Virus record (IMG/VR): IMGVR_UViG_3300042861_001913
Source: a virus
DNA: 64,000 nucleotides
Reading direction: 5' to 3' (one strand)
Position numbers and translations under genes: made by a program. The notes under the pieces are model-generated. The model saw only the letters and a program-made list of their open reading frames with translations, made no database searches and had not been told where the DNA came from. This document shows positions 2,658-62,701 of this stretch, one piece after another (the first letter of the stretch is position 1; each line of letters starts with the position of its first letter).

Positions 2658-3497
2658 ATGAACGAACGTAAATTAATAGATGAAATTAAACGCTTAGTTA
2701 ACAATGATGTAATTATTGGTTACTATAATGGAACTACATTTACTGACGATAATGGTAAAACATACGCTTCCAGCTATTTAGTAACTAATAATTCTCCTAT
2801 TGGTAGAGGATTCATAGTTCCATATGAAGGTAAATGGTTAGTTGTAGTAGCTAATAATAATCAAGAGGTAAGAAAAAATATAATAACTAGTAGAAAGAAG
2901 ATAAGTATTGAAGATAAACCTAAATCTCTTACTATTGATTATTTACTAGCTCATACAAATCTATTTAGGCGGAGTAACACATTTTATACAATTAGAGATA
3001 ACAAATGGAAAAAGTATGAATTACCAGAAACAATACCATTAGAATACTTAAATTATTATATTGATAGTAACTATATTGTTATAAAAAGTGATCAAAAGGA
3101 TAAGAGATTTAATCAATTAACCGTTTTAAAAGATGACGTATTTACAACCTATACATATCCAGAAGAACTTCCTGTATTAAAAACATGGCGCAAAGATGTT
3201 TTTAATACTTATAATGTTATTAATAACAATTATGGTAAATTCTGGGCTACAGTGTATCAAAATAGATTTTACGAGATATTATATGAATTTTCACAATTAA
3301 ATTTCGTTATTGAAGCATTAAGTTTAGAACAATCTATTAATATATATATTGTTAAATGTCGTTTTACTGAGGGTAAAATTACTAGTTGTAGGAAAAAACC
3401 ATTTAAAGTGAAAAGTCCTAAATTAGATACTAATATTATCTCTCCTGAAGAAGTAAACAAACTACTTATTGTTAGCACTTATATTAAATTTCAATGA
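2658..3497 (+). CDS. hypothetical protein (structural module)
   Basis: 279-codon ORF co-oriented with fibre genes in stop-rich AT-rich DNA; no motif recognised. Confidence 0.55.
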   Translation: MNERKLIDEIKRLVNNDVIIGYYNGTTFTDDNGKTYASSYLVTNNSPIGRGFIVPYEGKWLVVVANNNQEVRKNIITSRKKISIEDKPKSLTIDYLLAHTNLFRRSNTFYTIRDNKWKKYELPETIPLEYLNYYIDSNYIVIKSDQKDKRFNQLTVLKDDVFTTYTYPEELPVLKTWRKDVFNTYNVINNNYGKFWATVYQNRFYEILYEFSQLNFVIEALSLEQSINIYIVKCRFTEGKITSCRKKPFKVKSPKLDTNIISPEEVNKLLIVSTYIKFQ

Positions 3498-4735
3498 ATA
3501 ACCATTATCTGTCATCTCAAATAACTGGATTAACTACTAACATTGTTCAAGAGTTAGTAAGTCCACATAAACACACAATCCGCGATTATGAATCCATACT
3601 TCGTAATCCCTGGGCTAAGGAATGCTGTAATATTAAATCACTCAGAGCAACTGTAACTATAGGTGATTATCAGAATAAGAATAAAGAACATCAGGACTTC
3701 ATACTTGATGCTATAGCTAATATGGATGGCACATTATCTGACATAGTAGGACGATTATGTAGTGCTATGCCATTTGGACATAGTAGTGCTGAAATAGCAT
3801 TTAAACCAATACGTTCATTTGGTAAGACTCGCTACACACTGAAGGGAATTAATCTACTCGATCCTAAGAGAGTGCGTTATGCTGGTGCTGCTGGTAAATT
3901 AACTCATATTCGATATAACGATGGGATTCGTGCATTATGGATTCCTTATAACAAGTGTCTTCATATTACTAACGGATTAGTTACTAACTATAACGAACGT
4001 ACTGCTTATGGTGATCCAGAGTGCGAAACAGCCTATCCATACGTCAAACTATACGAGATTATATTCAGTGAAATGGCGGTTAGTGCTAAGACACTTGCGG
4101 TAGGTATATTACTAGGTCGTGCTGATACTGAGAATACTGTTTACTTACAAAATAAAGATGGTAGTCAATACATAGACGTTAGAACTGGTAAACCTGTAGC
4201 TATTAGTGCTGTAGCTAACCTAGCTGAACAGTTTCAGAACCTTGAAACTCACAGTCATATAGTTACCGATAAACGTAATGAAGTTAGTGCCTTACAGATA
4301 CCAGCAGGTGAACAGTTCTGGAATCTCGCAGAATCTATGTTGCGTAAGAATATATTTGCTGCATTTGGTGTACCTAGTATGGTGCTTGACGAAGGTAGTG
4401 GCGGTATTGCAACTGCTACACTCAGTGTTAAACATTTGTCAATTCTAGATAGTACAGTTGAAGCAACAGTTAAGAAGATTAGAGATCAACTGATTGAGAA
4501 AGTTATACGTCCACTTATTATATGGAACTATGGTGTTCAAGATGATTATGGTAGCTTCGCAGTTACTAATGTTAATGATCCGACTCAGGAGAGCGCACAG
4601 ATACAAAACTTCATAACTGCATTTACTACACAAGTAATACCCATGACTGATCTAGAAGCAATGAATAAGTTTCGTGAGTTGATGAAATTATCACCAACTA
4701 CAGAAGTTAGTCAGCCGGAGACTCAAAGCTATTAA
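3494..4735 (+). CDS. putative portal-like structural protein
   Basis: ATGA overlap with the upstream ORF. The segment ...LRKNIFAAFGVPSMVLDEGSGGIATATL... resembles the conserved core of portal proteins (Mu gp29/DUF935-like). Weak, eye-only call. Confidence 0.35.
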   Translation: MNNHYLSSQITGLTTNIVQELVSPHKHTIRDYESILRNPWAKECCNIKSLRATVTIGDYQNKNKEHQDFILDAIANMDGTLSDIVGRLCSAMPFGHSSAEIAFKPIRSFGKTRYTLKGINLLDPKRVRYAGAAGKLTHIRYNDGIRALWIPYNKCLHITNGLVTNYNERTAYGDPECETAYPYVKLYEIIFSEMAVSAKTLAVGILLGRADTENTVYLQNKDGSQYIDVRTGKPVAISAVANLAEQFQNLETHSHIVTDKRNEVSALQIPAGEQFWNLAESMLRKNIFAAFGVPSMVLDEGSGGIATATLSVKHLSILDSTVEATVKKIRDQLIEKVIRPLIIWNYGVQDDYGSFAVTNVNDPTQESAQIQNFITAFTTQVIPMTDLEAMNKFRELMKLSPTTEVSQPETQSY

Positions 4736-4907
4736 CTAAACTTTGCTTCTTACTTAATTTATTATTTAATCGCTCATGTAGATCATTTATAGAATCTTTA
4801 TAAAATTTAAGTTCGTCCTTAAGTGAATCTACTGTATCCTGGGTATCCTGAATATTATACATACTTATAACCTTGTTTAATTGCATATTGAGCAGTTGCA
4901 TAACCAT
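4707..4907 (-). CDS. hypothetical small coiled-coil protein, last gene of the minus-strand array
   Basis: 66-aa ORF convergent with and overlapping the portal-like gene by 29 nt; heptad-like DSLKDELKFYKDSINDLHERL. Confidence 0.35.
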   Translation of the reverse strand: MVMQLLNMQLNKVISMYNIQDTQDTVDSLKDELKFYKDSINDLHERLNNKLSKKQSLVNSFESPAD

Positions 4908-5042
4908 CTAATTCCTTCTATCATGAGTTCCATCTCCTATCAATATAACTCCTTATTCTTTCAAAACTCTGACCAACGTAGAATCTAAGTGCTTCACGTA
5001 ATTGATCAGGAGTTATATTAGGTATTGTTGATATAACCACAT

Positions 5043-5843
5043 TTATAAAATACCAAGAGCTACTAGTTCATTGTATAACACTTCTATATTACATTGATAA
5101 TAAGTATAGTGAGAACCACTTCCACCATAATAGTCATCTTCATGAATTTCACCCATTGAGCAGCTAATCGCATATAACTTCTTATAGGTAAGAAAACTAA
5201 TGGTCGGATCTATGCTAGTAATGAGATTATCAAATGCCTCAAAGTTAGCTAATGGTTCATCTCCATCATAGTATGTAATATCGTCATCCCAACAGTTACC
5301 CCTACTACCACCAGTAGACCAACTATCTGATTTGAGATATGGTTGATTGATAGTACAACCTAAATTATATTTATCAGAGAATACTAACCAATCTGGTTTA
5401 ACTGCAACTTTATGTAACTTCATAGTAGTATTCTCAAATAACAATTTAAGTTCATCTAAGTTAGGTACATCTAGAGTTAATGTCTTAATGCTAAACGCAC
5501 TAGAGATATCACGTCTATTAACATCATTAATTAAACACTGATTACGATTCTCTTCCCAGTAATGTATCTCTATCTCAGTTAACTCTTTATTCTTAACTAG
5601 TGCATTAATAACTAGAGTTAATTGTTCATTAGTGTGAATTAAACCATCAATGATAAATGTATTAGTTATATAACGAATATAGTTATCTAACCTAGTTAAC
5701 TTATTAACTGCATTCTTCTTATAACGTTTAAGTAGATCATCAAAATCAATATGTCTAATAAGTTTATTATTAGATGATTCTAGTTCCTTCGCAAATGTAG
5801 TTTTCCCACTACTCGGCAATCCCATCAATATTAATACTTTCAT
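5043..5843 (-). CDS. P-loop kinase/NTPase domain protein
   Basis: Walker A GLPSSGKTTF at the N-terminus; C-terminal ~130 aa not recognised. Confidence 0.6.
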   Translation of the reverse strand: MKVLILMGLPSSGKTTFAKELESSNNKLIRHIDFDDLLKRYKKNAVNKLTRLDNYIRYITNTFIIDGLIHTNEQLTLVINALVKNKELTEIEIHYWEENRNQCLINDVNRRDISSAFSIKTLTLDVPNLDELKLLFENTTMKLHKVAVKPDWLVFSDKYNLGCTINQPYLKSDSWSTGGSRGNCWDDDITYYDGDEPLANFEAFDNLITSIDPTISFLTYKKLYAISCSMGEIHEDDYYGGSGSHYTYYQCNIEVLYNELVALGIL

Positions 5844-7257: not shown

Positions 7258-8174
7258 TTCCTTTGTCTAGTTATCCACTGTAATATTGTATTAATTTTAG
7301 TATCAGGTTCTACAGCTTTAATTAAATCAGCAATATCTTTATTTGATAAACTTACATTTTCATCATAAATCTGTTTTCTTACCTCTGATTTATTTTTATA
7401 TTCATTAGGATCTACTTGCCATTCAATACTTCCATTTTCTAATTTAAAGATGTAATTTGTTTCATCTATTTGTTCAATGTTATTTTTAATTTGATATAAG
7501 CGTTTAATTTTCTTATTAGGAGATGGTTGATCTAATGCCCAAATAATTTCAGGATATTGAACTATACCACTAAAACCGCGTACCGATCTAGTAGTGTATT
7601 TATTATCCTTAATTTCACTCTTGTTAACTAATTGAGTAAATACAACTGCAATATTATATTTAAGAGCGATAGTAGCAAACCATTGTAGACAAGGTAGAAC
7701 TTGACACGTATTTTCATCAACAATATTAAATCCAGATAACGAATCAACTATTAATAGTTCAATGTTTTCTGATTCAATAATCTTTTCAATTAATTCAATA
7801 TCATCACTAACGTTATATGTAACTATCTCTAGTGGATTTTTAGGTGTAATGTAGTTGTTTCTACTACCACCTAATAAATCAATACGTTTAACGAATGATT
7901 TAATACGACCTTCTGTATCAATAATTAATACTCTACCTGTATCTTTAATTTCATAATCTTCTCTAGGTAAAAATGGTATATTACTAGTTATTGATAAACT
8001 AGCACCAACTAGACACCAACTTTTACCAATACCACCTTCAGCAACTACAGCACTAACACGACCTTTAGGAAATAAACCTCCTATATATTCAACTTCTACA
8101 TTTTCAACTTCAAGATTCATAACAGTGTGTCCTAAACTTGGAATATATAGACTTTCAACAAATACATCATTCAT
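7254..8174 (-). CDS. RecA-superfamily ATPase (AAA_25/KaiC/DnaB-C-like)
   Basis: Walker A AEGGIGKSW and Walker B ELLIVDSLSG. Confidence 0.6.
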   Translation of the reverse strand: MNDVFVESLYIPSLGHTVMNLEVENVEVEYIGGLFPKGRVSAVVAEGGIGKSWCLVGASLSITSNIPFLPREDYEIKDTGRVLIIDTEGRIKSFVKRIDLLGGSRNNYITPKNPLEIVTYNVSDDIELIEKIIESENIELLIVDSLSGFNIVDENTCQVLPCLQWFATIALKYNIAVVFTQLVNKSEIKDNKYTTRSVRGFSGIVQYPEIIWALDQPSPNKKIKRLYQIKNNIEQIDETNYIFKLENGSIEWQVDPNEYKNKSEVRKQIYDENVSLSNKDIADLIKAVEPDTKINTILQWITRQRN

Positions 8175-8271: not shown

Positions 8272-8424
8272 TTAAGATTCATAATCCATAACAATACAGG
8301 TAAGTAAGAAAAAAGGTAGGGCGATTTCAACACTTGTATAATCTGATGCTAAGTATCTATCCGCCACTCCAAACATGAATCCGCCAGTTAGTAATGTGAA
8401 ACTAATCCATCTCAGTTGTTTCAT
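8272..8424 (-). CDS. possible small membrane protein (50 aa, below ORF-track cut-off)
   Basis: Hand-translated MKQLRWISFTLLTGGFMFGVADRYLASDYTSVEIALPFFLLTCIVMDYES fills an otherwise empty 358-nt gap; no clear RBS. Confidence 0.3.
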   Translation of the reverse strand: MKQLRWISFTLLTGGFMFGVADRYLASDYTSVEIALPFFLLTCIVMDYES

Positions 8425-9044: not shown

Positions 9045-10019
9045 TTAATATCCTCCTACCACTGTAATATCACCACGTAATGTTGGATGATGTTGATAAT
9101 CATTAATTACAAAGTCATCAATAACGAAGTCTTGCAAATACCGTTGACCTCTATCTCTAATAGTTAAAGTAGGTAACGTATAGGGAACTCTAGTTAATTG
9201 CTCATTAACTTGTTCAACATGGTCACTATAGATGTGATGATCAGCAGTTGCAATAACTAACTCACCTGGTTCATATCCAGTACATTTAGCATACATAGAT
9301 AGAAGTAGTGCATACTGAGCGATGTTATACGCGCCACCGAGGAATAAATCCCAACTGCGTAGGTATAACATTATACTTAACTTACCATTACTTACATTGA
9401 CTGAGTAGTGAGTATGACAAGCTGGAAGTATTACTGATTCATTACCACATTTATAAGCCATTGAATAAACAGTAGTTGGATTCCAATAACTTACAAGAAA
9501 AGACTTACGATCAGGTGTCTTTTTAATTCCATCAATTACAAATCTAGTTTGATCTAGTGTACTATATCTGTACTCAGAATCTATTTGGGTAGACCAATAA
9601 TGTGTATATTCCCAACTTGTACTATTACTATAATGAAGTGGAATAATTTCGCTAGTAATAACACCATCATCAACTAACTGTTGCCATTGTTTGGTTAACT
9701 CAACTGTATTATCAGCAGTTAACTTAACACCTTTATTACGCCAATACTGTTTAGCACCCCATTCATCCCAGATAGTACACTTAACATTATGTAACTTAAC
9801 TACATCATTGCTACCATCTATAAACCACAACATCTCATTGAATGCTGATTTATAAAATGTACGTTTAGTAGTTAATAGTGGAAATCCATCTGATAGATTA
9901 AATCTAACTAAACCACCAAATCTACTAATAATATATTTGTCATCATGACCATATATATTTTTTCTTACGCCATTATCAATTACATCTTGTAGCAGGTTCA
10001 AAAATTGTTGTTCTGACAT
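9045..10019 (-). CDS. thyA: thymidylate synthase (ThyA family)
   Basis: FNEMLWFIDG, SYWNP, LPACHTHY (catalytic Cys), RSWDLFLGGAYNIAQY (Asn retained, dUMP type) and DHHIYSDH. The ~50-aa insert resembles long ThyA forms. A DHFR gene lies nearby. Confidence 0.8.
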   Translation of the reverse strand: MSEQQFLNLLQDVIDNGVRKNIYGHDDKYIISRFGGLVRFNLSDGFPLLTTKRTFYKSAFNEMLWFIDGSNDVVKLHNVKCTIWDEWGAKQYWRNKGVKLTADNTVELTKQWQQLVDDGVITSEIIPLHYSNSTSWEYTHYWSTQIDSEYRYSTLDQTRFVIDGIKKTPDRKSFLVSYWNPTTVYSMAYKCGNESVILPACHTHYSVNVSNGKLSIMLYLRSWDLFLGGAYNIAQYALLLSMYAKCTGYEPGELVIATADHHIYSDHVEQVNEQLTRVPYTLPTLTIRDRGQRYLQDFVIDDFVINDYQHHPTLRGDITVVGGY

Positions 10020-10765
10020 AATCCAGCTTTCCTTACTTGAATATTATTGTTAATTAAATACTGTAATCCTTCTAACTTAGAGTGTTCATTGAAGTAAACA
10101 ACTCTTCTAATACCTTTATTTACAATTTCTCTAGCACAGTAAATACATGGAGAATAACTAATAAATAAATCATCTCCTGGTGTAGCTAATTGTAATCCTA
10201 TTTCTTCAGCATGATAATATTGACATCCAATAACTTCATTACAGTTAAGTTCAGTTCTTTTAACTACTCCATTACTACCTCGCCCAATAATATTACCATT
10301 ACTAACTAATACTGCACCAACTTGTAATTTACTACAAGCTGATTTAGATTCCGCAATTTTAAGTTGTTTAACTATATCACTAGTATGAACACCTGTAACT
10401 TCAGATAATAATAGTGCATTATTAACAACTCCTAACTTATTAAAGTTATAACTATCTTTAAATAACACAATGTATCTGTCACTATTTAAATACAAATTAA
10501 TGTCATTTAAATTAAAATGATTAACGTTATCTATAGTTACTAATAACTTCGGATATGTTAATTTAAACCATTCAATTAAATCATGTCTTCTCCAATCGTA
10601 AGAAAATAAGGGTCTGTTGATATCTTTATCTTCATTAAGTAATTCATCAGATTGCAATCTAAATATTACTTCAGTTGGATTAACTTCATTAATTGCTTTC
10701 ATTAAAAACAACTTATGATTATCATGTAATACATCAAATCCACCACCTGTTATAAGTGTAACCAT
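9998..10765 (-). CDS. cytidylyltransferase-like domain fused to dCMP deaminase
   Basis: N-terminal GGFDVLHDNH...GVHTSDIV matches the HxGH / ISTT-type nucleotidyltransferase fold. C-terminal HAEE...PCIYCA is the CMP/dCMP deaminase zinc motif. Confidence 0.65.
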   Translation of the reverse strand: MVTLITGGGFDVLHDNHKLFLMKAINEVNPTEVIFRLQSDELLNEDKDINRPLFSYDWRRHDLIEWFKLTYPKLLVTIDNVNHFNLNDINLYLNSDRYIVLFKDSYNFNKLGVVNNALLLSEVTGVHTSDIVKQLKIAESKSACSKLQVGAVLVSNGNIIGRGSNGVVKRTELNCNEVIGCQYYHAEEIGLQLATPGDDLFISYSPCIYCAREIVNKGIRRVVYFNEHSKLEGLQYLINNNIQVRKAGLCQNNNF

Positions 10766-10815: not shown

Positions 10816-11475
10816 TTATTTAATTAACTCTTGAAAGTCTACACTATCCCAGATTAATCTAGTAGTACCATAATAATAATCATAGTTATTACTATAGTAG
10901 TTAAACATCTTATTTAATAACTCACTATCTAACTCAGTTAAACCTAACTTAGTTAACGTAGAACGACATAACTTAGTTGCTCTAGTTACATCTTTCTGAT
11001 CATCTACAATTACTTCTACTTCACATAATCCACCGTAACCTGCATTAATATCAACACAGATATTAAACTTATCAGTCTTATATTCACGTCTACATCTACT
11101 CCATTTAGATTGATATGTTAAACCTAGACTTAATAGTATGTTATCTAACTCATGTAATGATTCACCTCTAATTAGTTCTTTCTCTACACGAACTACACCA
11201 TTATCAGCATCTTCAGTATTGTATTTGAAAATTAATAGTGTACCACCTTTATCGTCATATCTAGTTCTAATAGCTAACTTAGATGTAGTTAGTAATTCAT
11301 TCTTAAATGACAGATTTAGTTTATCTGCTAATTTAACAAGACTCTCCTCTGTGTAAGAAAAATAGTGGTTAAGTTGATTGCTATCTACAATATCTACATT
11401 TGGATATAACGTAATGATGCGAGATTTAAGATCATCAACATCACTAACTAATGCTTTAACTTCTACTTCAATCAT
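10816..11475 (-). CDS. CYTH-domain protein (triphosphate tunnel metalloenzyme)
   Basis: N-terminal MIEVEVK (ExExK) and later CEVEV acidic strands. Confidence 0.6.
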   Translation of the reverse strand: MIEVEVKALVSDVDDLKSRIITLYPNVDIVDSNQLNHYFSYTEESLVKLADKLNLSFKNELLTTSKLAIRTRYDDKGGTLLIFKYNTEDADNGVVRVEKELIRGESLHELDNILLSLGLTYQSKWSRCRREYKTDKFNICVDINAGYGGLCEVEVIVDDQKDVTRATKLCRSTLTKLGLTELDSELLNKMFNYYSNNYDYYYGTTRLIWDSVDFQELIK

Positions 11476-11478: not shown

Positions 11479-12006
11479 TCAATTACCTATTACTTGTACT
11501 AAACCGCGATAACTTTGACGTGCATCATTAAGTGCATTATGAATTGGTAACTCATTCTCTAATCGCTCATAATAATCAGGTAAATTACGAGCTAATCTAA
11601 ATGAAGTTACATCTAATAATGGATATGGTGAAAATTCCATTATTGAGTCAAATTCAACCCATGTTTCCAGTGCTAATGTAATGAAGTTAGTTTCAACTGG
11701 AAATGGAACATCTGCAAATAACTTAATGTTAGGATATCTCTTATTTAAATCAATCCAATCATAGATAAAATCCCTAGTTAATTCTTCACTATTAGATTCA
11801 CCTAGATGTGGTGTTACATTAACTTCAATCCAATCTACATCTTTTTTCTTACCTACACGTTTAGCATACTTATAATTAGCTTCAGAATACTTGTATATTT
11901 CCTCAATTACATTACCATTACTATCTCCAATTACAATACCATAACTGAAGGCATCACCATATAAACCCATTGATTCAACATCTAATACCGCAACAATGTA
12001 ACTCAT
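11479..12006 (-). CDS. DEDDh 3'-5' exonuclease
   Basis: LDVES (DxE) and HNALNDA (Hx4D). Confidence 0.6.
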   Translation of the reverse strand: MSYIVAVLDVESMGLYGDAFSYGIVIGDSNGNVIEEIYKYSEANYKYAKRVGKKKDVDWIEVNVTPHLGESNSEELTRDFIYDWIDLNKRYPNIKLFADVPFPVETNFITLALETWVEFDSIMEFSPYPLLDVTSFRLARNLPDYYERLENELPIHNALNDARQSYRGLVQVIGN

Positions 12007-12251: not shown

Positions 12252-12807
12252 ACAAGTCCTCCACTATTTTTCTTACCTTATCACGTAATTCCTCTATTGT
12301 ACCACTATTATCAATATAATATTGAGTTGGTACGAATGACCAATCATCTAATTTAATGTCCAGGTCAGTTGATTTAGTTTCACCTCTCCCATCTATGTGA
12401 AGTAACACTAACTCATAATCTAGTAACTTCAATAACTCTAACTCCGTTTGGTTGCGACAATCAACTATAGCTACATTACCTATAATAGAGTTAATGACAT
12501 TCTTAGTTGCACCAGGAACTAGATAGTTACCACCTGGATAGAGTGACTTAAATACATGAAAGAAGTTGTACATTAAATCATTGTAGGTAAATGATTCTAA
12601 GTTACCTGTAACTGGATTAACTACAGGTTTAACTCTAAACTCCTTATCATCTAAACTACCTCTATCTAAACCTAACCAATCTTCTAATGGTGTTTTAAAT
12701 GCACGACTAAACTTAACTATAGTTAGAGGAACTAATTCACTCAGTAGTTCAGCTACTGTATCCTTACCTGCATCAGACTTATCAGACCAAACTATAAATA
12801 ACTTCAT
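12244..12807 (-). CDS. deoxynucleoside monophosphate kinase-like (T4 gp1 type)
   Basis: MKLFIVWSDKSDAGKDTVAELL resembles the gp1-type GKD P-loop N-terminus. Confidence 0.55.
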   Translation of the reverse strand: MKLFIVWSDKSDAGKDTVAELLSELVPLTIVKFSRAFKTPLEDWLGLDRGSLDDKEFRVKPVVNPVTGNLESFTYNDLMYNFFHVFKSLYPGGNYLVPGATKNVINSIIGNVAIVDCRNQTELELLKLLDYELVLLHIDGRGETKSTDLDIKLDDWSFVPTQYYIDNSGTIEELRDKVRKIVEDLYE

Positions 12808-13976: not shown

Positions 13977-14162
13977 TTAGTTGTCGTCGCATGGGAACAC
14001 ATCCTTACAATAAGTCCAATTAAGTACATTTTGTTCAATAACTTCTAAATCAGAGTCTATCCATCTGTAATCTATATATTTAGCTAATAGATATATTTTC
14101 TTACCGCTTTCATATTCTATTTGAACTAAACATTCATCAGTTGTATCAGGTAACTTATTCAT
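13977..14162 (-). CDS. hypothetical protein
   Basis: Co-oriented, overlaps the next gene by 8 nt; no motif recognised. Confidence 0.45.
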   Translation of the reverse strand: MNKLPDTTDECLVQIEYESGKKIYLLAKYIDYRWIDSDLEVIEQNVLNWTYCKDVFPCDDN

Positions 14163-16397: not shown

Positions 16398-16781
16398 TTA
16401 ATTCTGTATTAACTCTACTAATTGGTGGAAATATTCAACTTGCATAAATAATGTAACAGTTAATTCATAACACTTACCCCACAGTTGACGTGATTTAGTG
16501 TCATCTTCTAATCCATATTGAGTTAGTAGTTCAATATAAGCTAACTCTTCTTTATCAATTAATGTAGGTATATTAAATTCGCGCATTTCAAATACACTAG
16601 TTTTTCTTACCTGTTTATCTTTATCAAATAACCATTCAACACGAACAAACTCTTTATCTGCTATTAATACATCTGCTTCTACAACATTGTATTTTTCATA
16701 GCGAGTAATCTGTTCAGCGTTCAATTCAATTTGATATAGTTTACCTTCGTATTCAAATGTTAAGTTCATATAATTCTCCAA
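16398..16781 (-). CDS. hypothetical protein
   Basis: Co-oriented, tightly packed ORF; no motif recognised. Confidence 0.55.
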   Translation of the reverse strand: MENYMNLTFEYEGKLYQIELNAEQITRYEKYNVVEADVLIADKEFVRVEWLFDKDKQVRKTSVFEMREFNIPTLIDKEELAYIELLTQYGLEDDTKSRQLWGKCYELTVTLFMQVEYFHQLVELIQN

Positions 16782-23627: not shown

Positions 23628-23674
23628 AGACTTATTTTAGCTCAAGCTGTATACCATAGATTATTTTTCTTACC

Positions 23675-48544: not shown

Positions 48545-48595
48545 TTTAATTCCTTTTTCTTACGTTGTTTAAATAGTGACTTGAATTTGCGTCGT

Positions 48596-51465: not shown

Positions 51466-52611
51466 CTAGATATGATTACGATATGTACCACCACTAGCAA
51501 TAGATAACTTCTGTAAGTTATAATTACTGCTATCTAATATAAAACTATGTAACTTAAATCCATCTAAATCAGGTAGAGTTAAGTTACATTCATCTTGACC
51601 ATCATTAATTACAATTAGTTGTTTATTAGTTGATATTACACCTCTAGACTTACTAATAGCCTCTTTAATACACCTCTGAACATCAGTACCCCCTTTATCA
51701 AATGATGTATGATAGATAGCATTCCAGATACTAGTAACATCTGAATCCTTAGTTACGTGATACCAATCGAAACAAGTTCTCTCAAAGTAAGAAAAAAGTA
51801 GTTCACACTCACCCGATTGGACACGCTTAATTATGTTGAATATGATACCAAGAGCCTTATTCATCTTGTTATCATGTTGCATAGAACCACTAACATCACA
51901 TATTAGCGTTATAAATGAAAGTTTATCCTCCTTCCGATATCGTTCAATAATGTGAGATTCATTATTAATGATGCGATAACTGAGATAATTAACTGGATTA
52001 ATCAACTCAATTGGATTGATTAGATTAAGTTCATCAAATCCGCGTATAGGTCTAGTTTCGCAGTATTCACCAGTAGAATCGGCGATCATAGTATTACTAG
52101 TATCTATGATACCTAACTTATCAAGAGTGTCACTAGCACGTAATACCTCAGCTAATTTATAACTGATTTCACCAGATAGAAGTAACTTCTCATCGGCGGA
52201 TCTACGTCCCAGTGATTTAACAGTTTCCTTAATACTCTTAACCTTTTTTCTTACCTCATGATTATTATTGAATATTGGTAATGTTAATTCACTATTACTA
52301 TTATCATCACCAGTTTCACCATTAGCTAATAACTCAAGTATGTTAAATACTTGTTCTAATGGAGATCCCAATAAACTACTAGCTAATGATGGTACTTTCT
52401 CTAGGAAAGATTGAACATTGACTTCATAATCAATGTTATCTATACACTGTTGCTGCATATATTCAACTGAAGTTAATGTACCTCCAGTTAACATATTAAA
52501 CATATCAGTAACTAAAGTAGGACAATAGTTATAAATGTCGAATTTAGCAGCAACTACATCCATTTCATCAGTAGTTGGAGTAACTGCATCTAGATGTGCG
52601 ATAGTTCTCAT
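51466..52611 (-). CDS. vWA-domain protein (CobT-like), cassette 2
   Basis: MIDAS ICDVSGSM; paralogue of 48974..50272. Confidence 0.6.
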   Translation of the reverse strand: MRTIAHLDAVTPTTDEMDVVAAKFDIYNYCPTLVTDMFNMLTGGTLTSVEYMQQQCIDNIDYEVNVQSFLEKVPSLASSLLGSPLEQVFNILELLANGETGDDNSNSELTLPIFNNNHEVRKKVKSIKETVKSLGRRSADEKLLLSGEISYKLAEVLRASDTLDKLGIIDTSNTMIADSTGEYCETRPIRGFDELNLINPIELINPVNYLSYRIINNESHIIERYRKEDKLSFITLICDVSGSMQHDNKMNKALGIIFNIIKRVQSGECELLFSYFERTCFDWYHVTKDSDVTSIWNAIYHTSFDKGGTDVQRCIKEAISKSRGVISTNKQLIVINDGQDECNLTLPDLDGFKLHSFILDSSNYNLQKLSIASGGTYRNHI

Positions 52612-53765
52612 AGTTGAATTGCAACCATTAAGTTATCTCGTGCAATAGCAACTTCATTTAGAAGTGTGCGAAATTCTAACTTAACTTCATTGTATTTAAC
52701 TTCAGTATCATCATCATACGTAACTGTAGTTAAAAATTTATCATACAATTTACTGATTGATGTGTGACATACAGCATAGTTGTAATAGTTACTAACAGAG
52801 GTATTAAACATACGTCTAGCTGTAACTAATCTACTACTAAAGTTATCTAACTTTTCATTAGATACCTGTCTCAATTCAATCTCCTCAATTGCTTCATCAA
52901 CTTCATCCCAATCAACGCTCCAGTAACTTAGATAATCAATAACTCTGAAATCGCATCTCTCAACTACATTAGACCCACGCAATAATGCAGCACTTTTAAT
53001 TAATCGCACTGTCCATTGAAATGCTCTAGGACTAACAGTATTACCACTATTAGCACTATCTTCAGCTAACTTAGCTAATAGTCGCCATAAGTCAATATTA
53101 AATTCAATTAATTTAACATCATTACGCCATTTATCAATGTCAGTTAACTCAAATTGAACAACTGGTAATTCGTTAACTGATGGATATAATGCAACATAAT
53201 CGTTAGCATTATGAGATTTCCAACCATGTTCAACTATCATGAACCTCTGAAGAAATGCAGCACAACTATTACGTTGATTCTCACGTACTGTAGATGTTAC
53301 AGATGTGGGATTAATGTTAGTCGCACATACTAGAATCTTGCAGTTATTAATGATCTCATCACCATTAATATGTATTTTCTTACCTGTAATCACAGCCTTC
53401 AGGAAACTAAGTGCATTGAAACTCGCATCTAATACTTCTTCTAACATGAAGTAGTCATGCTGTAGTAGCGAATTAGCCACATTGTAATACGCTTCAGTTA
53501 AACTACCACCTTCTTGATTAATGGTTCTTGCAATTGCGCCACCTTTAATAGCAGCACTAGTTGTTTCAGGATCACATTCAAGCATTCCGAAACGTCCATT
53601 GAACAGAGATAATGCACTAATTAACATCTCTGATTTACCATATCCACCTTCACCATGATAGATGATTGGGATGTCAGCTAATACGCTCAACATAAATGTA
53701 TCGGCAAACTCATCTACATTAATAAATCCATCATTCTTGAGCTTATTGATTAAGTTATCTAACAT
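52608..53765 (-). CDS. MoxR/CobS-like AAA ATPase, cassette 2
   Basis: YHGEGGYGKSEM Walker A, MLECDPETT...IKGGAIART and ILVCATNINP. Confidence 0.6.
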   Translation of the reverse strand: MLDNLINKLKNDGFINVDEFADTFMLSVLADIPIIYHGEGGYGKSEMLISALSLFNGRFGMLECDPETTSAAIKGGAIARTINQEGGSLTEAYYNVANSLLQHDYFMLEEVLDASFNALSFLKAVITGKKIHINGDEIINNCKILVCATNINPTSVTSTVRENQRNSCAAFLQRFMIVEHGWKSHNANDYVALYPSVNELPVVQFELTDIDKWRNDVKLIEFNIDLWRLLAKLAEDSANSGNTVSPRAFQWTVRLIKSAALLRGSNVVERCDFRVIDYLSYWSVDWDEVDEAIEEIELRQVSNEKLDNFSSRLVTARRMFNTSVSNYYNYAVCHTSISKLYDKFLTTVTYDDDTEVKYNEVKLEFRTLLNEVAIARDNLMVAIQL

Positions 53766-53827: not shown

Positions 53828-54325
53828 TCAAGCCAATCTATAACCTTGATTATATATTGTCGCATATTTAATCACTCCCATATCAGAAAAGTTGTCTATG
53901 AAGCGTTGAATTATCGCAGTATCCTGACTTAGTAAGAAAAAAGAAGAGTAATGCGCCGGATTACGTCCTGGTTGGAGATAATTGGGGTTACTAACACCAT
54001 TAACCTCAGTTCTACCATCTATCCAATTAATACGGCTGCGACACTTAACATGAACATAGGTTTCAAGTTCAGGTACTTGCCAGCATACAGACTCACTGTA
54101 ACCAGCAAATATGATGTTAACACTCTTATCATTCTCATATGTATCAATTGCTTTAATTGCCGCACGACTAGCAGGAATGGGCGGATTACAATATACATTA
54201 CCAGTCCAATCTAATTCATAGCCGCCTGTACCATCAGGAGGAAATGGATCTAAAGTTGCACCTAATGTTGAATTAACTTTATCCCAAATATATGGTGGTG
54301 TATACCAACTACTACTATTAGACAT
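53828..54325 (-). CDS. phage Dam-family (PF05869-like) N6-adenine methyltransferase-like protein with NPPI in place of NPPY
   Basis: SSWYTPPYIWDKV...TLDPFPP...GNVYCNPPI; ~165 aa, as for small phage Dam proteins. Confidence 0.45.
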   Translation of the reverse strand: MSNSSSWYTPPYIWDKVNSTLGATLDPFPPDGTGGYELDWTGNVYCNPPIPASRAAIKAIDTYENDKSVNIIFAGYSESVCWQVPELETYVHVKCRSRINWIDGRTEVNGVSNPNYLQPGRNPAHYSSFFLLSQDTAIIQRFIDNFSDMGVIKYATIYNQGYRLA

Positions 54326-57826: not shown

Positions 57827-57919
57827 TTATTCTCCTAATATTTTAGAAAGTAAATCAATTACACTGGATAGAAATAATCCAAATAGTGTACCAAGTAAGA
57901 AAATAAATAGTATTGGCAT
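57827..57919 (-). CDS. 30-aa hydrophobic peptide
   Basis: MPILFIFLLGTLFGLFLSSVIDLLSKILGE, with an AGGAGA RBS. Its stop lies 1 nt before the next ATG. Confidence 0.4.
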   Translation of the reverse strand: MPILFIFLLGTLFGLFLSSVIDLLSKILGE

Positions 57920-57929: not shown

Positions 57930-58481
57930 CTAATAAACTAATAGTTCACTATTAAATCGCACTAACTTAAGTAGAGTTAGCAGTTTCCAATCTACAGGAA
58001 ATGACTTGAATCGGAGATCTGTGCGTGATTTAATTTCCATCTGTTTAACCTGTTTCCATTTACGTAACTCCTCAATAACACTATCTTTAATTGGTACATC
58101 TAACCATTTAGATAACTCAATTAATAATTTAAGTGATTCCGTATCAGATGTACATTGAACTACACCTACACTAGATTTATTTCTATGTTGATAAAACGCA
58201 TATTCGCTGGACTTAACTTGAAAACCAAGCCATTGATCATTTCGTTTAACTGCAATGTCTACTTGATATACAGAATCAAGTATGGTGTAATTTTCAACTA
58301 GATACACTTCATCTAATTGAAGTAACTTGAGAATGTTAACTAGATACAACTCTGTTTTCTTACCTTTGTTAACAGCAGCTTTAGTATCGTAATTTGGTCT
58401 AGTAAGTTTAATTTTATCTAGACCATATATCAGATGATCTAGTGTTAACTCGTATGGTTTGTCGGCGATCTTGAAGCTCAT
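57930..58481 (-). CDS. hypothetical protein, possible PD-(D/E)XK-like nuclease (start trimmed)
   Basis: A GAGGA RBS precedes the internal ATG (MSFKIADKPYEL). YQVDIAVKR...FQVKSS is a weak D...(D/E)xK pattern. Confidence 0.35.
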   Translation of the reverse strand: MSFKIADKPYELTLDHLIYGLDKIKLTRPNYDTKAAVNKGKKTELYLVNILKLLQLDEVYLVENYTILDSVYQVDIAVKRNDQWLGFQVKSSEYAFYQHRNKSSVGVVQCTSDTESLKLLIELSKWLDVPIKDSVIEELRKWKQVKQMEIKSRTDLRFKSFPVDWKLLTLLKLVRFNSELLVY

Positions 58482-58854: not shown

Positions 58855-59202
58855 TCAGGATCTAACTTCATTACGATTCTCCATAGCAAATAATTCATCA
58901 CGAGTTAACTCAACACGATCTAAATCGTTATCATCTACAGTGTCATAGAATAACTTCATAAATTTAGCATTATCAACTTTTAATTTCTCCAATAGCTTAA
59001 GACATTCAGTTATACCTCTAACATAATAGTATTCACCATCAACACGTATTCTGATAGCTATACTTAATATTTTCTTACCATCTTGATCTGTTACTACATT
59101 AATAATTGGTTTCCATGCTGTGTAACGTTTAAGATTAATACCGCCGCATTCAAGTTCAAAATTCTTCATTATACTCCTAATAAGAATCGGTGTGTTCATC
59201 AA
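58855..59202 (-). CDS. hypothetical protein
   Basis: Co-oriented ORF. Confidence 0.5.
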   Translation of the reverse strand: MMNTPILIRSIMKNFELECGGINLKRYTAWKPIINVVTDQDGKKILSIAIRIRVDGEYYYVRGITECLKLLEKLKVDNAKFMKLFYDTVDDNDLDRVELTRDELFAMENRNEVRS

Positions 59203-59238
59203 CTTACTCTTTTTCTTACAATTTGAATGTCTTGTGGT

Positions 59239-60210: not shown

Positions 60211-62196
60211 TTATACCTTAACTCTCATAGTTCTATTACCATTAACTCTAACTACAAAGTTATTACGTAATGTTGAATTAAATCCAACTCCAGATAATTG
60301 GTTACTGCAAGATGGTGTCTTTAACTTATCACCAAGTACATCAAATACCTTACGACTATGCTGAACTAATTCAGACTTAAGATACTCATTAAAGATAGAT
60401 CGAGGATTATCTGAATTAACACATCCTTCTAACATAAAGAGATAGTGTTTTTCACCGATAGCAGTTGTCCAATGATTAGGAGATAAACTAACTAGATTGA
60501 CCTTATGGAATAAATTAGTCTTAATACCCCATATCTCCTTAGATGACACACTAGAACCGCTACTATCAAGTGATTTAACAATAGTAAATCCTTTTAATTT
60601 GTCGAATTTAACAGTAACTACAGGTATTGTCTCTCCACCTCGAAGATTCTTATTATATGCGTAAGAAAAAAGAGTACCATCTATTTCTAATTCAGCAGTA
60701 AATCCGCCATTAGATGTACGAAATGAATAGTTATGAACAAAGTATGTGTATTCACCATCCAGCATTCGGCGGCGATCTATGTGAACTATGTTCTCTACTG
60801 CAACTCCTCTAGGAACGCGTATATCAACGTCCAACGAGCCACCAGTATTTCTACTAACTTTATTATTGTATGCAATCTCACAATAAAGAGGTTCTATACA
60901 ATGAGCATCGAAATCAATAATGTTAGCATTATTATCATTCCATTGAATACTAAACCTACTAACTACATCATCTACACGTCCACCTGCTGCTTTAACTCTC
61001 TCACGCATACTATCAGCATTACCGCCATTGTAAACCCAGCTAAATGAGTTATCCCACTTAAATAATGTAGGTGCTGCACTATCTACAGCAGTTACTAAAC
61101 TAACTAAATTACCACTATGGTGCGATTCAAGTAGTAACTCAACATTAGTAGCACCAGGTAACACATCATTAATAAACTCATCTATGTTAACTTCATCTAA
61201 CTTAACTAATGATTTAGGATTTACAGGAACAGCATCTCTGATGCTATCAAATACATTAGTATTAAGTTTCTGACTACGATTAATAAACAGAGCATTATTA
61301 ATGTTAATATCACTCTCATGACAGAACCTCCTATCTAATGCTGCTTCTAAACCAAGTTCTACAACTAACTTATTAGCTTCCTCTACTTGTTTCTTAGTAG
61401 AGATAACTTGATTAGTTCTCATGTAACTACCGCCAGATACTTTACTCTCGTAAAATCTAATAGCAGCATCTAGATCACGACCATTAGTTAACTCAATTAA
61501 TAAGTCACCTAATGATGTATCATGTAAATCAGTGATGTAAGTATCACAGTTACTCCAACAGTAGTTAACCTTATTAACAGTTAAGTTAGCATACTGTTGT
61601 TGATGACGTAGTAACTCATTTAACTTAGCTTTATTTGATTCACCTCTATATAGTTGATTCTCTGCAATCAATGATAGAAGTGTTTCAGTTGCATCAATAC
61701 TAATGTTATCTAGTATTGAAGTTAATACACTATGTTTAACTCGCTTAAGGTGCATTAATGTATTTTCAGTTAAAAAAGATTGAGTTACTAATGTACTAGG
61801 TAACTCATAATAGAGATGTTGCCATTCTACATCAATAGTTAAACTACGATCTGTACCTAACTTAGATTGTTTAGTTATGAATACATTAGTTATGTTAGAT
61901 TCACTAACTAACTTATCTAATGCAGCTATAACTCCTGCATACATAACGTCATCTACAGTGAAATTCCAAATTGACTTAAGTTGATTGTCTTTAATTGCAA
62001 CTACATTACCATAGTTACGAATAAATGATTTACAACAGTTACAGTTAAATCCTTGACGTTCATCATCAGGAAACGCATTTAAATAAGCATCCCATAACTC
62101 ATTCTTATTAACATCAGTTACATATAACCGAACTTGTTCTTCAATGAGTTTATTGAAGTTACTTTGAAACAATACTTTAAATTCATTAAATTGCAT
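60211..62196 (-). CDS. large hypothetical protein (one of the first large genes of the minus-strand array)
   Basis: 661 codons; N-terminal CNCCKSF Cys cluster; AGGAGA RBS; no family recognised. Confidence 0.6.
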   Translation of the reverse strand: MQFNEFKVLFQSNFNKLIEEQVRLYVTDVNKNELWDAYLNAFPDDERQGFNCNCCKSFIRNYGNVVAIKDNQLKSIWNFTVDDVMYAGVIAALDKLVSESNITNVFITKQSKLGTDRSLTIDVEWQHLYYELPSTLVTQSFLTENTLMHLKRVKHSVLTSILDNISIDATETLLSLIAENQLYRGESNKAKLNELLRHQQQYANLTVNKVNYCWSNCDTYITDLHDTSLGDLLIELTNGRDLDAAIRFYESKVSGGSYMRTNQVISTKKQVEEANKLVVELGLEAALDRRFCHESDININNALFINRSQKLNTNVFDSIRDAVPVNPKSLVKLDEVNIDEFINDVLPGATNVELLLESHHSGNLVSLVTAVDSAAPTLFKWDNSFSWVYNGGNADSMRERVKAAGGRVDDVVSRFSIQWNDNNANIIDFDAHCIEPLYCEIAYNNKVSRNTGGSLDVDIRVPRGVAVENIVHIDRRRMLDGEYTYFVHNYSFRTSNGGFTAELEIDGTLFSYAYNKNLRGGETIPVVTVKFDKLKGFTIVKSLDSSGSSVSSKEIWGIKTNLFHKVNLVSLSPNHWTTAIGEKHYLFMLEGCVNSDNPRSIFNEYLKSELVQHSRKVFDVLGDKLKTPSCSNQLSGVGFNSTLRNNFVVRVNGNRTMRVKV

Positions 62197-62224
62197 AACT
62201 CTAAGTCTCCTAATTGTGTTAACT

Positions 62225-62494
62225 CTAAACTAACTTAATTAACAATGAATAGTTATCACTAAATGTAATAACTATAGTTACATCATCTTCATTAACTATA
62301 GATAAGATAACCTTACCTAAGATATCTGTAAGTGGATAACATCTACTTAACATACCTTTAGATAATGAATAAAACTCATAACTGTAACTTAATGTAGAGT
62401 TAGTTAAGTTAATGAATACTTTATCTTTACTTGCACTAACTCCATCAACAGTATCTCCAATTGCATCATAGTTAACTGCATGATCTAAACTCCT
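62225..62494 (-). CDS. hypothetical ORF with unresolved start
   Basis: An 89-codon open frame reads (...AIGDTVDGVSASKDKVFINLTNSTLSYSYEFYSLSKGMLSRCYPLTDILGKVILSIVNEDDVTIVITFSDNYSLLIKLV) and ends 28 nt before the next gene. The GAGGAG RBS plus ATG at 62481 is in a different frame. Confidence 0.3.
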   Translation of the reverse strand, partial: RSLDHAVNYDAIGDTVDGVSASKDKVFINLTNSTLSYSYEFYSLSKGMLSRCYPLTDILGKVILSIVNEDDVTIVITFSDNYSLLIKLV

Positions 62495-62701
62495 CTAATT
62501 AATGATTACTTACTTAACTCAGTTAACGCTACATAACGTAACTTCATTAACTGAGCATAGAATGGGTTGATCTTACATAGACTTGGAATAGTAACACTAA
62601 ATCCTGCAAACTTAAATGACTTATAATGGACAAGTTACAGGAACTAAAGCAACTATTAATTGAGCTAGTTGTTTCTTACTTAACTAAATATCTCTCTAAT
62701 T

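Follow-up and report, generated by a model that had tools for sequence, protein, structure and literature searches.

The IMG/VR virus record IMGVR_UViG_3300042861_001913, a stretch of 64,000 nucleotides analyzed at its full length and referred to here as the window, contained 49 exact copies of the 9-mer GTAAGAAAA (complement, TTTTCTTAC) by exact search, with 23 copies on the top strand and 26 on the bottom strand. The overall density was approximately 0.77 per kb, or about 1 copy per 1.3 kb, over both strands. From its genes, the window is part of a large virulent (lytic) tailed cyanophage. There was strong support for the word as a DNA-level signal, with the constraint acting on DNA rather than on a protein motif, as had been proposed from inspection of the letters: codon-aware null models failed to reproduce it, and amino acids were changed to fit it. 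Purifying selection keeps the word on both strands at about 0.8 per kb, even at an amino-acid cost, as seen from one-mismatch neighbors at chance level and from the retention of full copies in a relative of 89% identity. Because it recurs on both strands in this virus and its relatives even where the protein sequence changes, the word very probably serves as a recognition signal for a DNA enzyme that the virus encodes.

With a third-order Markov model, 0.69 copies were expected on both strands (about 70-fold enrichment), and with the copies masked, models of orders 1, 2, and 3 predicted 1.37, 0.69, and 0.46 copies, respectively. Shuffling of synonymous codons within each gene yielded 5.85 ± 2.17 genic copies (maximum, 12; 300 shuffles) and shuffling of codon order yielded 1.53 ± 1.29, compared with 43 genic copies observed, a 7- to 28-fold shortfall of the codon-aware nulls. 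The word was the most over-represented 9-mer of the window, and the lists for k = 10 to 12 were led by its extensions. Chance or composition as the source of the word was ruled out by Markov orders 1 to 3 and the two codon-aware shuffles. The original prediction, which had placed the word far above chance, was correct in this respect and gave a count below the real one: all 47 coordinates that it listed were correct by exact search, and two top-strand copies (5188 and 10598) and two 8-mer variants (18953 and 31818) had been missed.

The 8-mer GTAAGAAA occurred 58 times in the window, comprising 26 occurrences on the coding strand, 24 there as TTTCTTAC, and 8 between genes. Coding-strand GTAAGAAA was found in frames 0 and 1, reading V-R-K or [GSR]-K-K, and coding-strand TTTCTTAC was found in frames 0, 1, and 2, reading F-L-T, [FV]-S-Y, or F-L-x/x-F-L. 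The word occupied all five stop-free frames in both orientations, with about 85% of copies within genes, and every example of frame and orientation given earlier checked out in this tabulation. A protein motif as the source was ruled out by the five frames, the two orientations, and the 8 intergenic copies. The orientations were about equally frequent relative to transcription, without polarity; this equality and the 85% intragenic share ruled out a promoter or terminator. Genes of the window, which covers just a portion of an approximately 120-kb genome, were annotated with Pfam and PHROGs; contigs of other phages are denoted by L and a number. Copies are listed below by position, strand, and context.

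Exact copies of the word GTAAGAAAA:
2868..2876, +, in the plus-strand gene 2658-3497, V-R-K-N
5188..5196, +, gene 5043-5843(-), coding strand F-L-T-Y; missed in the original prediction
7374..7382, -, AAA_25 gene 7254-8174(-), V-R-K-Q
8304..8312, +, small open reading frame (ORF) 8272-8424(-), F-F-L-L
9960..9968, -, thymidylate-synthase-like gene 9045-10019(-), V-R-K-N
10598..10606, +, deaminase gene 9998-10765(-), F-S-Y-D; missed in the original prediction
11353..11361, +, CYTH gene 10816-11475(-), F-S-Y-T
11844..11852, -, gene 11479-12006(-), G-K-K-K
12268..12276, -, gene 12244-12807(-), V-R-K-I
14096..14104, -, gene 13977-14162(-), G-K-K-I
14443..14451, +, HD-domain gene 14155-14748(-), F-S-Y-L
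16602..16610, -, gene 16398-16781(-), V-R-K-T
18335..18343, -, class II ribonucleotide reductase (RNR) gene 17466-19670(-), G-K-K-T
19427..19435, -, class II RNR gene 17466-19670(-), S-K-K-K
19547..19555, +, class II RNR gene 17466-19670(-), V-F-L-R
20345..20353, -, Bro-N gene 19892-20674(-), V-R-K-Q
20693..20701, +, intergenic
23665..23673, -, intergenic, between the ATPase island and the polymerase gene
24425..24433, +, DNA polymerase gene, TTT TCT TAC (F-S-Y); word at the same codons in L236 and L241; kept in L009
26280..26288, +, gene 26009-26347(-), F-L-T-S
26559..26567, -, V-R-K-K; kept in L009
29262..29270, +, primase gene; word shared at orthologous codons by L236 and L380, with the second version there in L323
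30188..30196, -, Thg1-like gene 29985-30713(-), G-K-K-T
30993..31001, +, gene 30751-31188(-), V-F-L-L; kept in L009
31745..31753, -, gene 31188-32198(-), G-K-K-I; kept in L009
32235..32243, +, gene 32170-32850(-), F-F-L-R; kept in L009
33897..33905, -, exonuclease gene 33331-34143(-), S-K-K-T
34792..34800, -, gene 34508-34927(-), S-K-K-N
36116..36124, +, intergenic
37387..37395, -, polynucleotide kinase-phosphatase (PNKP) gene 37121-37969(-), S-K-K-I
37659..37667, +, PNKP gene 37121-37969(-), F-L-T-V
37825..37833, -, PNKP gene 37121-37969(-), S-K-K-N
39675..39683, +, AAA_24 gene 39497-40327(-), F-L-T-D
39706..39714, -, AAA_24 gene 39497-40327(-), S-K-K-N
42266..42274, +, gene 41632-43092(-), F-L-T-L
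43597..43605, -, intergenic by the gene call made here
44852..44860, +, gene 44679-45005(-), V-F-L-P
45688..45696, -, ATP-grasp gene 44980-45756(-), V-R-K-Q
45910..45918, +, gene 45759-45950(-), F-L-T-E
48555..48563, -, intergenic
51787..51795, +, gene 51466-52611(-), F-S-Y-F
52246..52254, -, gene 51466-52611(-), V-R-K-K
53375..53383, -, gene 52608-53765(-), G-K-K-I
53932..53940, +, Dam-like ORF 53828-54325(-), F-F-L-L
57895..57903, +, intergenic
58355..58363, -, gene 57930-58523(-), G-K-K-T
59070..59078, -, gene 58855-59202(-), G-K-K-I
59211..59219, -, intergenic
60661..60669, +, 661-aa gene 60211-62196(-), F-S-Y-A

Variants:
18953..18961, +, GTAAGAAAC, possible weak copy
25579..25587, +, GTAAGAAAC, kept in L009 and L236
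34221..34229, +, GTAAGAAAC, 8-mer match
35823..35831, +, GTAAGAAAC, 8-mer match
47245..47253, +, GTAAGAAAC, 8-mer match
62671..62679, -, GTAAGAAAC, intergenic
24844..24852, -, GTAAGAAAG, K-K-rich match probably due to chance; not kept in L009
31817..31825, -, GTAAGAAAT, probably due to chance; not kept in L009
54488..54496, -, GTAAGAAAT, probably chance

The word is asymmetric and not palindromic, with 9 to 10 invariant bases. The logo of the aligned copies spanned about 15 bp and consisted of a base other than T, GTAAGAAA, A (49 of 58; C in 6), A/C/T, A/T, R, and R. C was the sole tolerated alternative at position 9 (6 copies) and was nearly missing from +10 to +14. One-mismatch neighbors (27 words) were observed 23 times versus 18 to 23 expected, with an excess at position 9 only, and this count showed neither an excess nor an avoidance of near-cognate words in the window. 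GTA directly preceded 49 of the 75 AGAAAA hexamers in the window. The word was not part of a longer repeat, because the flanks beyond about 15 bp were random; a longer dispersed repeat or the footprint of a mobile element was ruled out by these flanks and by codon alignments, in which substitutions rather than insertions were found. An assembly artifact was ruled out by the same copies in independent ENA, JGI, Logan, and IMG/VR assemblies, and an NtcA-type GTA-N8-TAC site was ruled out by a logo without TAC at +11 to +13.

Same-strand copies were spaced more evenly than random (means of 2.6 and 2.1 kb; coefficients of variation of 0.49 and 0.59; P = 0.0006 and 0.003), and orientation alternated along the window (37 runs versus 25.4 expected; permutation P = 0.0006); both tests were picked post hoc, and the 21-kb pieces of distant relatives are too short to reproduce them. 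The alternation extended across the whole window without a polarity switch, whereas the GC skew was monotonic. Some copies on opposite strands were separated by only 31 and 120 nt. No pair in the window lay closer together than the inverted copies at 39675 and 39706, whose starts are 31 nt apart (39675-39714, GTAAGAAAACTAATTATATTCTGATTCTTATTTTTCTTAC).

Homopolymer content was also unusual. Outside the word, AAAA occurred 462 times in the window versus 1688 expected at zero order. Runs of at least 4 A or T were about 3-fold rarer than composition predicts in the window and L236 (ratio, 0.36), and the ratio was 0.7 to 1.4 in other relatives, including those with the same word; the depletion is separate from near-cognate avoidance.

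Versions of the word in related phages

The word or a second version of it was found in relatives at several depths of divergence, listed here with their identity to the window.

L001-L009 and L231-L236: at least 87% identity; same word, about 0.7 to 1.3 8-mers per kb (9-mers in L236, 0.95 per kb)
L009: 89% nucleotide identity; 6 of 6 full copies kept versus 58% of random 8-mers; the two lost sites are non-A9 variants
L241: polymerase 53%, GC 26%; 16 GTAAGAAAAA in 21 kb
L380: primase about 42 to 46%; 14 GTAAGAAAAA in 21 kb, both orientations
L237, a contig from a Scytonema assembly: polymerase 55%; 13 GGTAGAAAAA (about 0.15 expected) and 30 TAGAAAAA (about 2.5 expected)
L323, 117-kb IMG/VR contig: polymerase 43%; 17 GGTAGAAAAA (about 0.15 expected) and 32 TAGAAAAA (about 2.5 expected)
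L238 and L239/L240: polymerase 50% and 48%; without an iterated word
About 110 further, more distant polymerase relatives, including crAss-like phages: without an iterated word

The same word was present at 0.7 to 0.95 per kb in relatives down to 37 to 53% protein identity, and GTAAGAAAA(A) was carried at 0.72 to 0.95 per kb by L236, L380, and L241. The second version, G(G/A)TAGAAAAA, was found in both orientations in L237 and L323. G..AGAAAA is common to the two versions, which are distinguished by the pair of bases that follows the first G; put another way, one A is shifted from TAAG to the end of the A-run. Conservation in relatives, which had been put forward as a check on the word, was evident both in L009, where every full copy was kept, and in deep relatives, where codons were shared. 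Codon alignments of shared replication proteins across lineages, the strongest line of evidence, contained word sites without insertions, as follows.

Polymerase column 500: window, L236, and L241 TTT TCT TAC (F-S-Y); L237 and L239 Y-K-Y; L238 M-K-L; L237 without the word there
Exonuclease column 266: L241 ATT TTT CTT ACT; L237 AAT TTT TCT ACC; others F-K-T, F-T-T, or F-T-S
Primase column 129: window (TAT TTT TCT TAC), L236, and L380 T TTT TCT TAC; L323 ATT TTT TCT ACC; other relatives Y-I-Y-N, F-K-Y-N, and similar
Primase column 247: L380 GGT AAG AAA AAA; L237 and L323 GGT AGA AAA AAA; others without the word

In these alignments, sites were retained at the same codons despite deep divergence; every lineage had its own version there, and amino acids were altered to fit.

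The uptake signal sequences (USS) of Haemophilus and the DNA uptake sequences (DUS) of Neisseria have a 9- to 10-bp core with weaker flanks and occur about once per kb in both orientations and all frames; they are rare in recently acquired DNA, and the "dialects" of related lineages differ by one or two bases. The word is similar to USS and DUS in its density of about 1 per kb, its use of both orientations and all frames, and its core with weaker flanks, and the earlier comparison with uptake sequences and Chi was fair for density and all-frame use. USS and DUS differ in that they belong to naturally competent bacteria and are read by uptake machinery, whereas the word is found in a virus whose host lacks it and has no surplus of one-mismatch copies. 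In principle, the word could be a functionless by-product of a drive through biased mutation, repair, or gene conversion, an origin that has been put forward for HIP1 in cyanobacteria and for uptake sequences. Its density, all-frame use, and lineage-specific versions resemble those of uptake sequences, and cyanobacterial hosts carry their own iterated palindrome, HIP1; nevertheless, such an origin is highly improbable. A drive opposed by mutation should leave a halo of one-mismatch copies, which was not seen (23 versus 18 to 23 expected), the spacing is even, copies persist at the same codons across 37 to 53% protein identity with the version switched in place, and a drive would itself need a sequence-specific enzyme.

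Several other repeats were examined. In L381, 8 GGTAGAAAA were found along with ribosome-binding-site-like GGAAGAAAA, and the assignment of this contig is ambiguous; GGAAGAAAA was not accepted as a third version, as most of its top-strand copies are ribosome-binding sites just upstream of ATG. A 13-kb stretch of L139 (IMGVR_UViG_3300042866_001844), without protein similarity to the window, contained 8 GTAAGAAA, several of them accounted for by G-K-K codons. Its proteins form a set of very basic, K/R-rich paralogues (MVKQ.KVKSY.RKGK...), and because its proteins are very lysine rich, its copies are largely G-K-K codons. A 14-mer scan of IMG/VR for unrelated word-bearing phages gave, among the matches listed, mostly chance occurrences. 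Human-gut crAss-like contigs among the distant polymerase relatives (L256-L319) contained GC-rich repeats such as CCCGTAGAGG within DNA that is AT-rich, and these repeats probably represent terminator-type hairpins unrelated to the word.

Host DNA and acquired genes

The word was compared with DNA of the presumed host and with foreign genes in the window. A collection of 80 cyanobacterial loci (1.30 Mb) contained 9 copies of the word and 729 copies of HIP1 (GCGATCGC), Dolichospermum and Anabaena loci, a small sample of the presumed host (28.7 kb), contained no copies of the word, and the unrelated Aphanizomenon phage CL131 (50 kb) contained 1 copy of the word and 70 of HIP1. The word is phage specified, because the sampled cyanobacterial DNA and phage CL131 were virtually without it, and a host-imposed word (uptake, Chi, or HIP-like) was ruled out for the sampled cyanobacteria and CL131. 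The check proposed earlier, whether the host genome shares the word, gave a negative result in these samples, and the idea of a phage recognition signal was strengthened by its absence from host DNA and an unrelated phage and by relatives that carry the word, or a version different by one base, at orthologous codons. Neither GCGATCGC nor CGATCG occurred in the window. HIP1 resembles the word as a short sequence iterated very many times in genomes of the same ecological setting; it differs in being a GC-rich palindromic octamer common to host and phage, whereas the word is AT-rich, nonpalindromic, and phage-only. HIP1 was entirely missing from the window clade; it was abundant in some related or co-host cyanophages, namely CL131, L028, and L237, with 7 copies in 21 kb of L237 beside the second word version.

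The host is probably Aphanizomenon/Dolichospermum, as suggested by the last gene of the window, the avoidance of palindromes, and the HIP1-rich cyanophage contigs among the polymerase relatives. Palindromes of 6 bp that were fully avoided included AGTACT (0 versus 83 expected), ATGCAT (0 versus 59), ACATGT (0 versus 45), and GAATTC (0 versus 44), and AGATCT (8 versus 65) and CTTAAG (20 versus 62) were depleted in the window, which looks like restriction-site avoidance. ATGCAT, CTTAAG, and ACRYGT are sites of the Anabaena enzymes AvaIII, AflII, and AflIII, which fits the host assignment.

By exact search of the window, the word was absent from two features:

63182-63994, -, FGE-sulfatase gene, host derived (Pfam 1.4e-59; 80 to 84% identity to Aphanizomenon/Dolichospermum proteins)
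22491-23627, -, AAA_21/AAA_15 ATPase (Pfam), mobile island; missing from L008

The absence of the word from the ATPase island and from 62.7 to 64 kb, and its single copy in the plus-strand structural genes of the window, agreed with what had been noted before. In the top-strand structural genes together with the upstream region of a near-identical contig, 2 copies were found in 9.1 kb versus 7.0 expected (P = 0.03). Because host-derived, mobile, and structural genes lack or are poor in the word, it appears to accumulate with residence time in the phage lineage. The FGE-sulfatase (SUMF1-like) gene is GC richer and is probably a recent capture from the host; most host versions have an extra TIR domain, which the phage copy lacks. 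The ATPase island is also GC richer, OLD/ABC-like, and precisely absent from the otherwise 99.7%-identical contig L008, and its gene is predicted to be a mobile gene of defense or anti-defense type.

A further gene without the word was found at the following position:

14835..15686, +, gene of 283 aa, 68% identical to L323 gene 17111-17968

The polymerase of L323 is only 43% identical to that of the window, far below the 68% of this gene. The window gene has no GTAAGAAA, and the window and L323 genes each hold one TAGAAAA 7-mer. This suggests that the gene was recently exchanged between lineages with different word versions.

Candidate readers and mechanisms

In all likelihood, the word is read one strand at a time by a phage-encoded sequence-specific protein whose specificity has drifted between lineages. 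Word-bearing and word-less lineages have a replication module in common, consisting of the two polymerase-gene halves (exonuclease and polymerase), the helicase, proteins of 172 and 277 aa, and a PD-(D/E)XK exonuclease. Candidate readers and associated genes in the window were as follows.

28755..29588, -, candidate reader, T7/DnaG-type primase (zinc ribbon plus TOPRIM), 277 aa; overlaps the helicase gene
27023..28810, -, DnaB/gp4-like replicative helicase (Pfam AAA_25, 3e-25; DnaB_C); no internal word in the window clade
19892..20674, -, alternative candidate reader, Bro-N DNA-binding protein (Pfam Bro-N, 2.8e-18)
21746..22327, -, alternative candidate reader, Rha/antirepressor-like protein (Pfam Phage_pRha, 7.7e-5; phrog anti-repressor)
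35280..36080, -, alternative candidate reader, paralogue with the common C-terminal domain
53828..54325, -, Dam-like ORF (Pfam Dam, E = 0.016, below the cutoff; phrog_111, 5.7e-5)

The readers named in the original prediction fared poorly, as the Dam-like ORF was a marginal match (E = 0.016) and the basic protein was without a family match.

The 277-aa protein is predicted to be a T7-type primase. Alignment of the ORF revealed the motifs CPxCG...C-x4-C, EGEK, and PDxD, and its AlphaFold model had a predicted local distance difference test (pLDDT) score of 83. Foldseek searches with the model returned T7 gp4 as the best match (5ikn_G; E = 3.8e-4), followed by DnaG catalytic domains; a profile search of the family against the PDB returned zinc ribbons only. 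Every word-bearing lineage encodes the primase beside the helicase, and the zinc ribbon reads CGG[KS] in 7 of 7 word-bearing lineages and CGDD or CGEN in 2 of 2 word-less lineages (Fisher P = 0.028). The trees of the primase, helicase, PD-(D/E)XK exonuclease, and 172-aa protein were each compared with the word version, and none matched.

This primase is tentatively proposed as the reader of the word, which would be its primer start signal; priming was ranked first among the mechanisms, as a possibility rather than a probable solution. A template strand with 5'-TTTTCTTAC-3' would start a purine-rich RNA primer, and the other version on the template would be 5'-TTTTTCTAYC-3' (also written TTTTTCTACC). 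The primer could read pppAGAAAA, if synthesis began at a 5'-CTT/CTA-3' triplet in the manner of DnaG-type enzymes, or pppGUAAGAAAA. Okazaki fragments would then begin at the words, about every 2 to 2.6 kb on each strand. Because a 9- to 10-nt signal almost never arises by chance, the genome would have had to evolve and keep an evenly spaced set of its own, and foreign inserts would be tolerated as longer stretches without priming. Priming would explain strand asymmetry without transcription polarity, equal use of the strands, the exactness of copies, and the tolerance of word-free inserts. It would also explain the even same-strand spacing of 2 to 2.6 kb (Okazaki fragment size), versions that could change with the zinc ribbon, and the template 5'-...TTTTCT(T/A)...-3', which would give a purine-started primer. 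The constant AGAAAA follows the template triplet CT(T/A), which is the site type of DnaG primases (E. coli CTG, S. aureus CTA, pppAG).

In a stricter form, which is conceivable though doubtful, the primase would start only at the 9- to 10-nt word, and the genome would keep evenly spaced Okazaki signals of this private code on both strands. Such a code would drift into versions as the zinc ribbon of the primase changes, with existing sites rewritten in place. If true, this would be the first genome-wide, selected, sequence-defined system of lagging-strand initiation and a replication-level means of telling self from non-self DNA.

Several observations weigh against priming. Known DnaG/T7-type sites (T7 5'-GTC-3', E. 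coli CTG, S. aureus CTA, AtTwinkle (G/C)GGA) are strand specific and read on single-stranded DNA, and the word is similar in that the phage encodes a zinc-ribbon and TOPRIM enzyme and in having CT(T/A) and then template T's for a purine-started primer; however, such sites are 3 to 5 nt long at chance frequency, whereas the word is 9 to 10 nt and about 70-fold enriched. To our knowledge, a 9- to 10-nt requirement is without precedent for such a primase, and we know of no genome with a dedicated, enriched priming word of this length. The zinc-ribbon correlation depends on just two word-less lineages, the word-less relatives L238 and L239 have orthologous primases, and the word version does not track the primase tree, in which L380 (first version) is nearest L237 (second version; 51%). 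Even spacing and alternation were seen in the window clade only, in post hoc tests. Known DnaG/T7-type primases need 3 to 5 template bases (T7 GTC, PMC2910064; AtTwinkle (G/C)GGA, PMC5737085), and nicking is the only experimentally shown function of enriched 9-mers in phage coding DNA (PMC3517423, PMC11780129).

If a phage nickase cut one strand at each word, packaged DNA would be interrupted on both strands about every 1.2 kb. The statement in the original prediction that no described phage word resembles this one did not hold, as nick-associated 9-mers are known from the tf/LUZ24-like, T5, and phiKMV-like groups, on one strand and at lower density (PMC3517423, PMC11780129). In phage tf, TACTRTGMC has 14 copies in a 46-kb genome, all nicked (PMC3517423); in Rembedalsseter, WACTRTGAC has 13 copies, and its enrichment extends to 60 relatives of low nucleotide similarity, with 88% of copies coding (PMC11780129). 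Nicking is the only demonstrated function of a lineage-conserved, about 20-fold enriched 9-mer located mostly inside phage genes. Like the word, these nick motifs are exact, asymmetric, mostly intragenic, frame independent, phage specified, and conserved across relatives with little nucleotide identity. They differ in being on one strand, at 4 to 14 per genome (about 0.3 per kb), and clustered in part of the genome, whereas the word has 49 copies per 64 kb, spread over the genome and divided equally between the strands, and related lineages use two versions. All copies and nicks in tf and Rembedalsseter are on one strand, in contrast to the alternating 23 and 26 here; the density here is about 2.5-fold higher (0.77 versus about 0.3 per kb), and nicks at opposite-strand copies 31 and 120 nt apart would weaken packaged DNA. 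No HNH or GIY-YIG nickase candidate was found in the window, and metagenomic contig ends, a low-power proxy, did not coincide with the word. On balance, nicking is unlikely.

The word might instead be a Chi-like self-marker, at which a helicase-nuclease or recombination machine would stop degrading and recombine, while word-free host DNA would be destroyed. Orientations that are equally frequent and evenly spaced would suit a signal met soon from either direction, host and foreign DNA are without the word, and exact copies in lineage-specific versions are expected of co-evolution with a reader. The window also contains a recombination module (PD-(D/E)XK exonuclease, AAA_24, SSB-like, and RuvC genes). 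Chi is likewise a short, asymmetric, over-represented, directional self-marker of lineage-specific sequence; however, bacterial Chi sites are 5 to 8 nt, belong to the host chromosome as a whole, and show a strong co-orientation with replication, whereas here the host is without the word and there is no polarity. No RecBCD/AddAB-type helicase-nuclease was found among the window ORFs by Pfam and PHROGs, a search that did not extend to the rest of the genome of about 120 kb, and the exonuclease is common to word-less relatives too. A Chi-like function is rather improbable.

About equally improbable is binding of the word by a Bro-N/Rha/KilAC (antirepressor-like) or nucleoid-type protein, which would organize, compact, shield, or regulate the chromosome. 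The window encodes four modular paralogues (14835-15686, 19892-20674, 21746-22327, and 35280-36080) with different N-terminal DNA-binding domains. Two of them and their homologues in L241 and L323 have a C-terminal domain in common; one other is marginally similar to one of these, and the Bro-N protein has no such match. Bro-N homologues were found in L236, L241, and L323 and not in the L238 or L239 loci, and the Bro-N/Rha/KilAC-like family was the only one restricted to word-bearing loci (6 of 7 versus 0 of 2 word-less; partial genomes). A two-domain protein would suit a two-part word, with a variable GTA/GGT/GAT and then the constant AGAAAA. However, the correlation comes from 21-kb genome pieces and two word-less lineages only, such genes are common and highly mobile in phages, and a double-strand binder gives no obvious reason for even same-strand spacing or alternation.

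The word could also be the target of base modification (Dam-like methylation or hypermodification) that marks phage DNA. A marginal Dam-like ORF and a rich nucleotide-metabolism set (long thymidylate-synthase-like protein, dCMP deaminase, DHFR, HD phosphohydrolase, and ATP-grasp) are present, and the phage is under restriction pressure, because several 6-bp palindromes are fully avoided. The Dam-like match is under the Pfam threshold, however, and has NPPI in place of the NPPY/F motif. A modification target is usually a short sequence that does not accumulate, and a 9-mer at 0.8 per kb would protect nothing else. Modification is very unlikely.

Iterated words have each revealed DNA machinery, as in the cases of Chi, uptake sequences, FtsK-orienting polar sequences (KOPS), and the T5 and tf nick motifs. 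Bacteria have several enriched words with a function (Chi, USS/DUS, KOPS, and HIP1), and in phages nick motifs are the known case. In the literature, no description was found of a two-strand, all-or-none viral word at about 1 per kb with two versions swapping at orthologous codons, and searches with the word as such brought up nothing beyond primers and paramyxovirus gene-end signals. There is a real chance that the mechanism is new, and any of the readings, if right, would be new, whether priming, two-strand nicks, a phage Chi, or chromosome organization. The word is an unusually clean viral case, with about 70-fold enrichment, both strands, all-or-none exactness, proteins altered to fit, and two versions at the same codons in lineages with only about 40 to 55% protein identity. 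It is a strong pointer to a sequence-specific activity in phages of bloom-forming cyanobacteria. Together, the word and its second version provide a simple signature for spotting this phage group in metagenomes, and word-free stretches flag recently acquired genes in its genomes.

Gene content of the window

Near-identical contigs were found in many metagenomes, and an 87% relative was located on a 122.7-kb contig. The top strand of the window contained tail-fiber-like and portal genes. The bottom strand formed a long gene block that included genes for RuvC, DHFR, a long thymidylate-synthase-like protein, dCMP deaminase, class II RNR with a cobalamin adenosyltransferase, a split family-B polymerase, a DnaB/gp4-like helicase, an exonuclease, and an AAA_24 protein, as well as Thg1-like, PNKP, RNA ligase, ClpS, and ATP-grasp genes. 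The RNA-repair-type set (29985-30713 and 37121-39036) comprised a Thg1-like 3'-5' nucleotidyltransferase, the polynucleotide kinase-phosphatase, and a T4 Rnl1-like RNA ligase.

The family-B polymerase was split over two ORFs with a 4-nt overlap, one for the exonuclease (25111-25905) and one for the polymerase (23675-25114). In L323 (9179-11275) the two parts are fused (698 aa), in L236 (8488-11095) a GIY-YIG gene sits between the polymerase pieces, and in L009 (7743-9996) the polymerase region holds an insertion without a match to the window. A class-II aminoacyl-tRNA-synthetase-like gene (tRNA-synt_2b; 15728-16396) was present in the window and L002 and not in L001 or L008.

The 661-aa protein encoded at 60211-62196, of unknown function, matched phrog_1735 (E = 8e-202) and had no Pfam match. 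It was about 40% identical over its full length to Bacillus phage proteins (TsarBomba and related), with tblastn matches in 556 phage records, including Salmonella, Klebsiella, Caulobacter, and Xanthomonas phages. Upstream of the portal gene, the gene at 2658-3497 encodes 279 aa in the window versus 438 aa in the otherwise near-identical L382 (10806-12122) and L383, an indel polymorphism in a structural gene.

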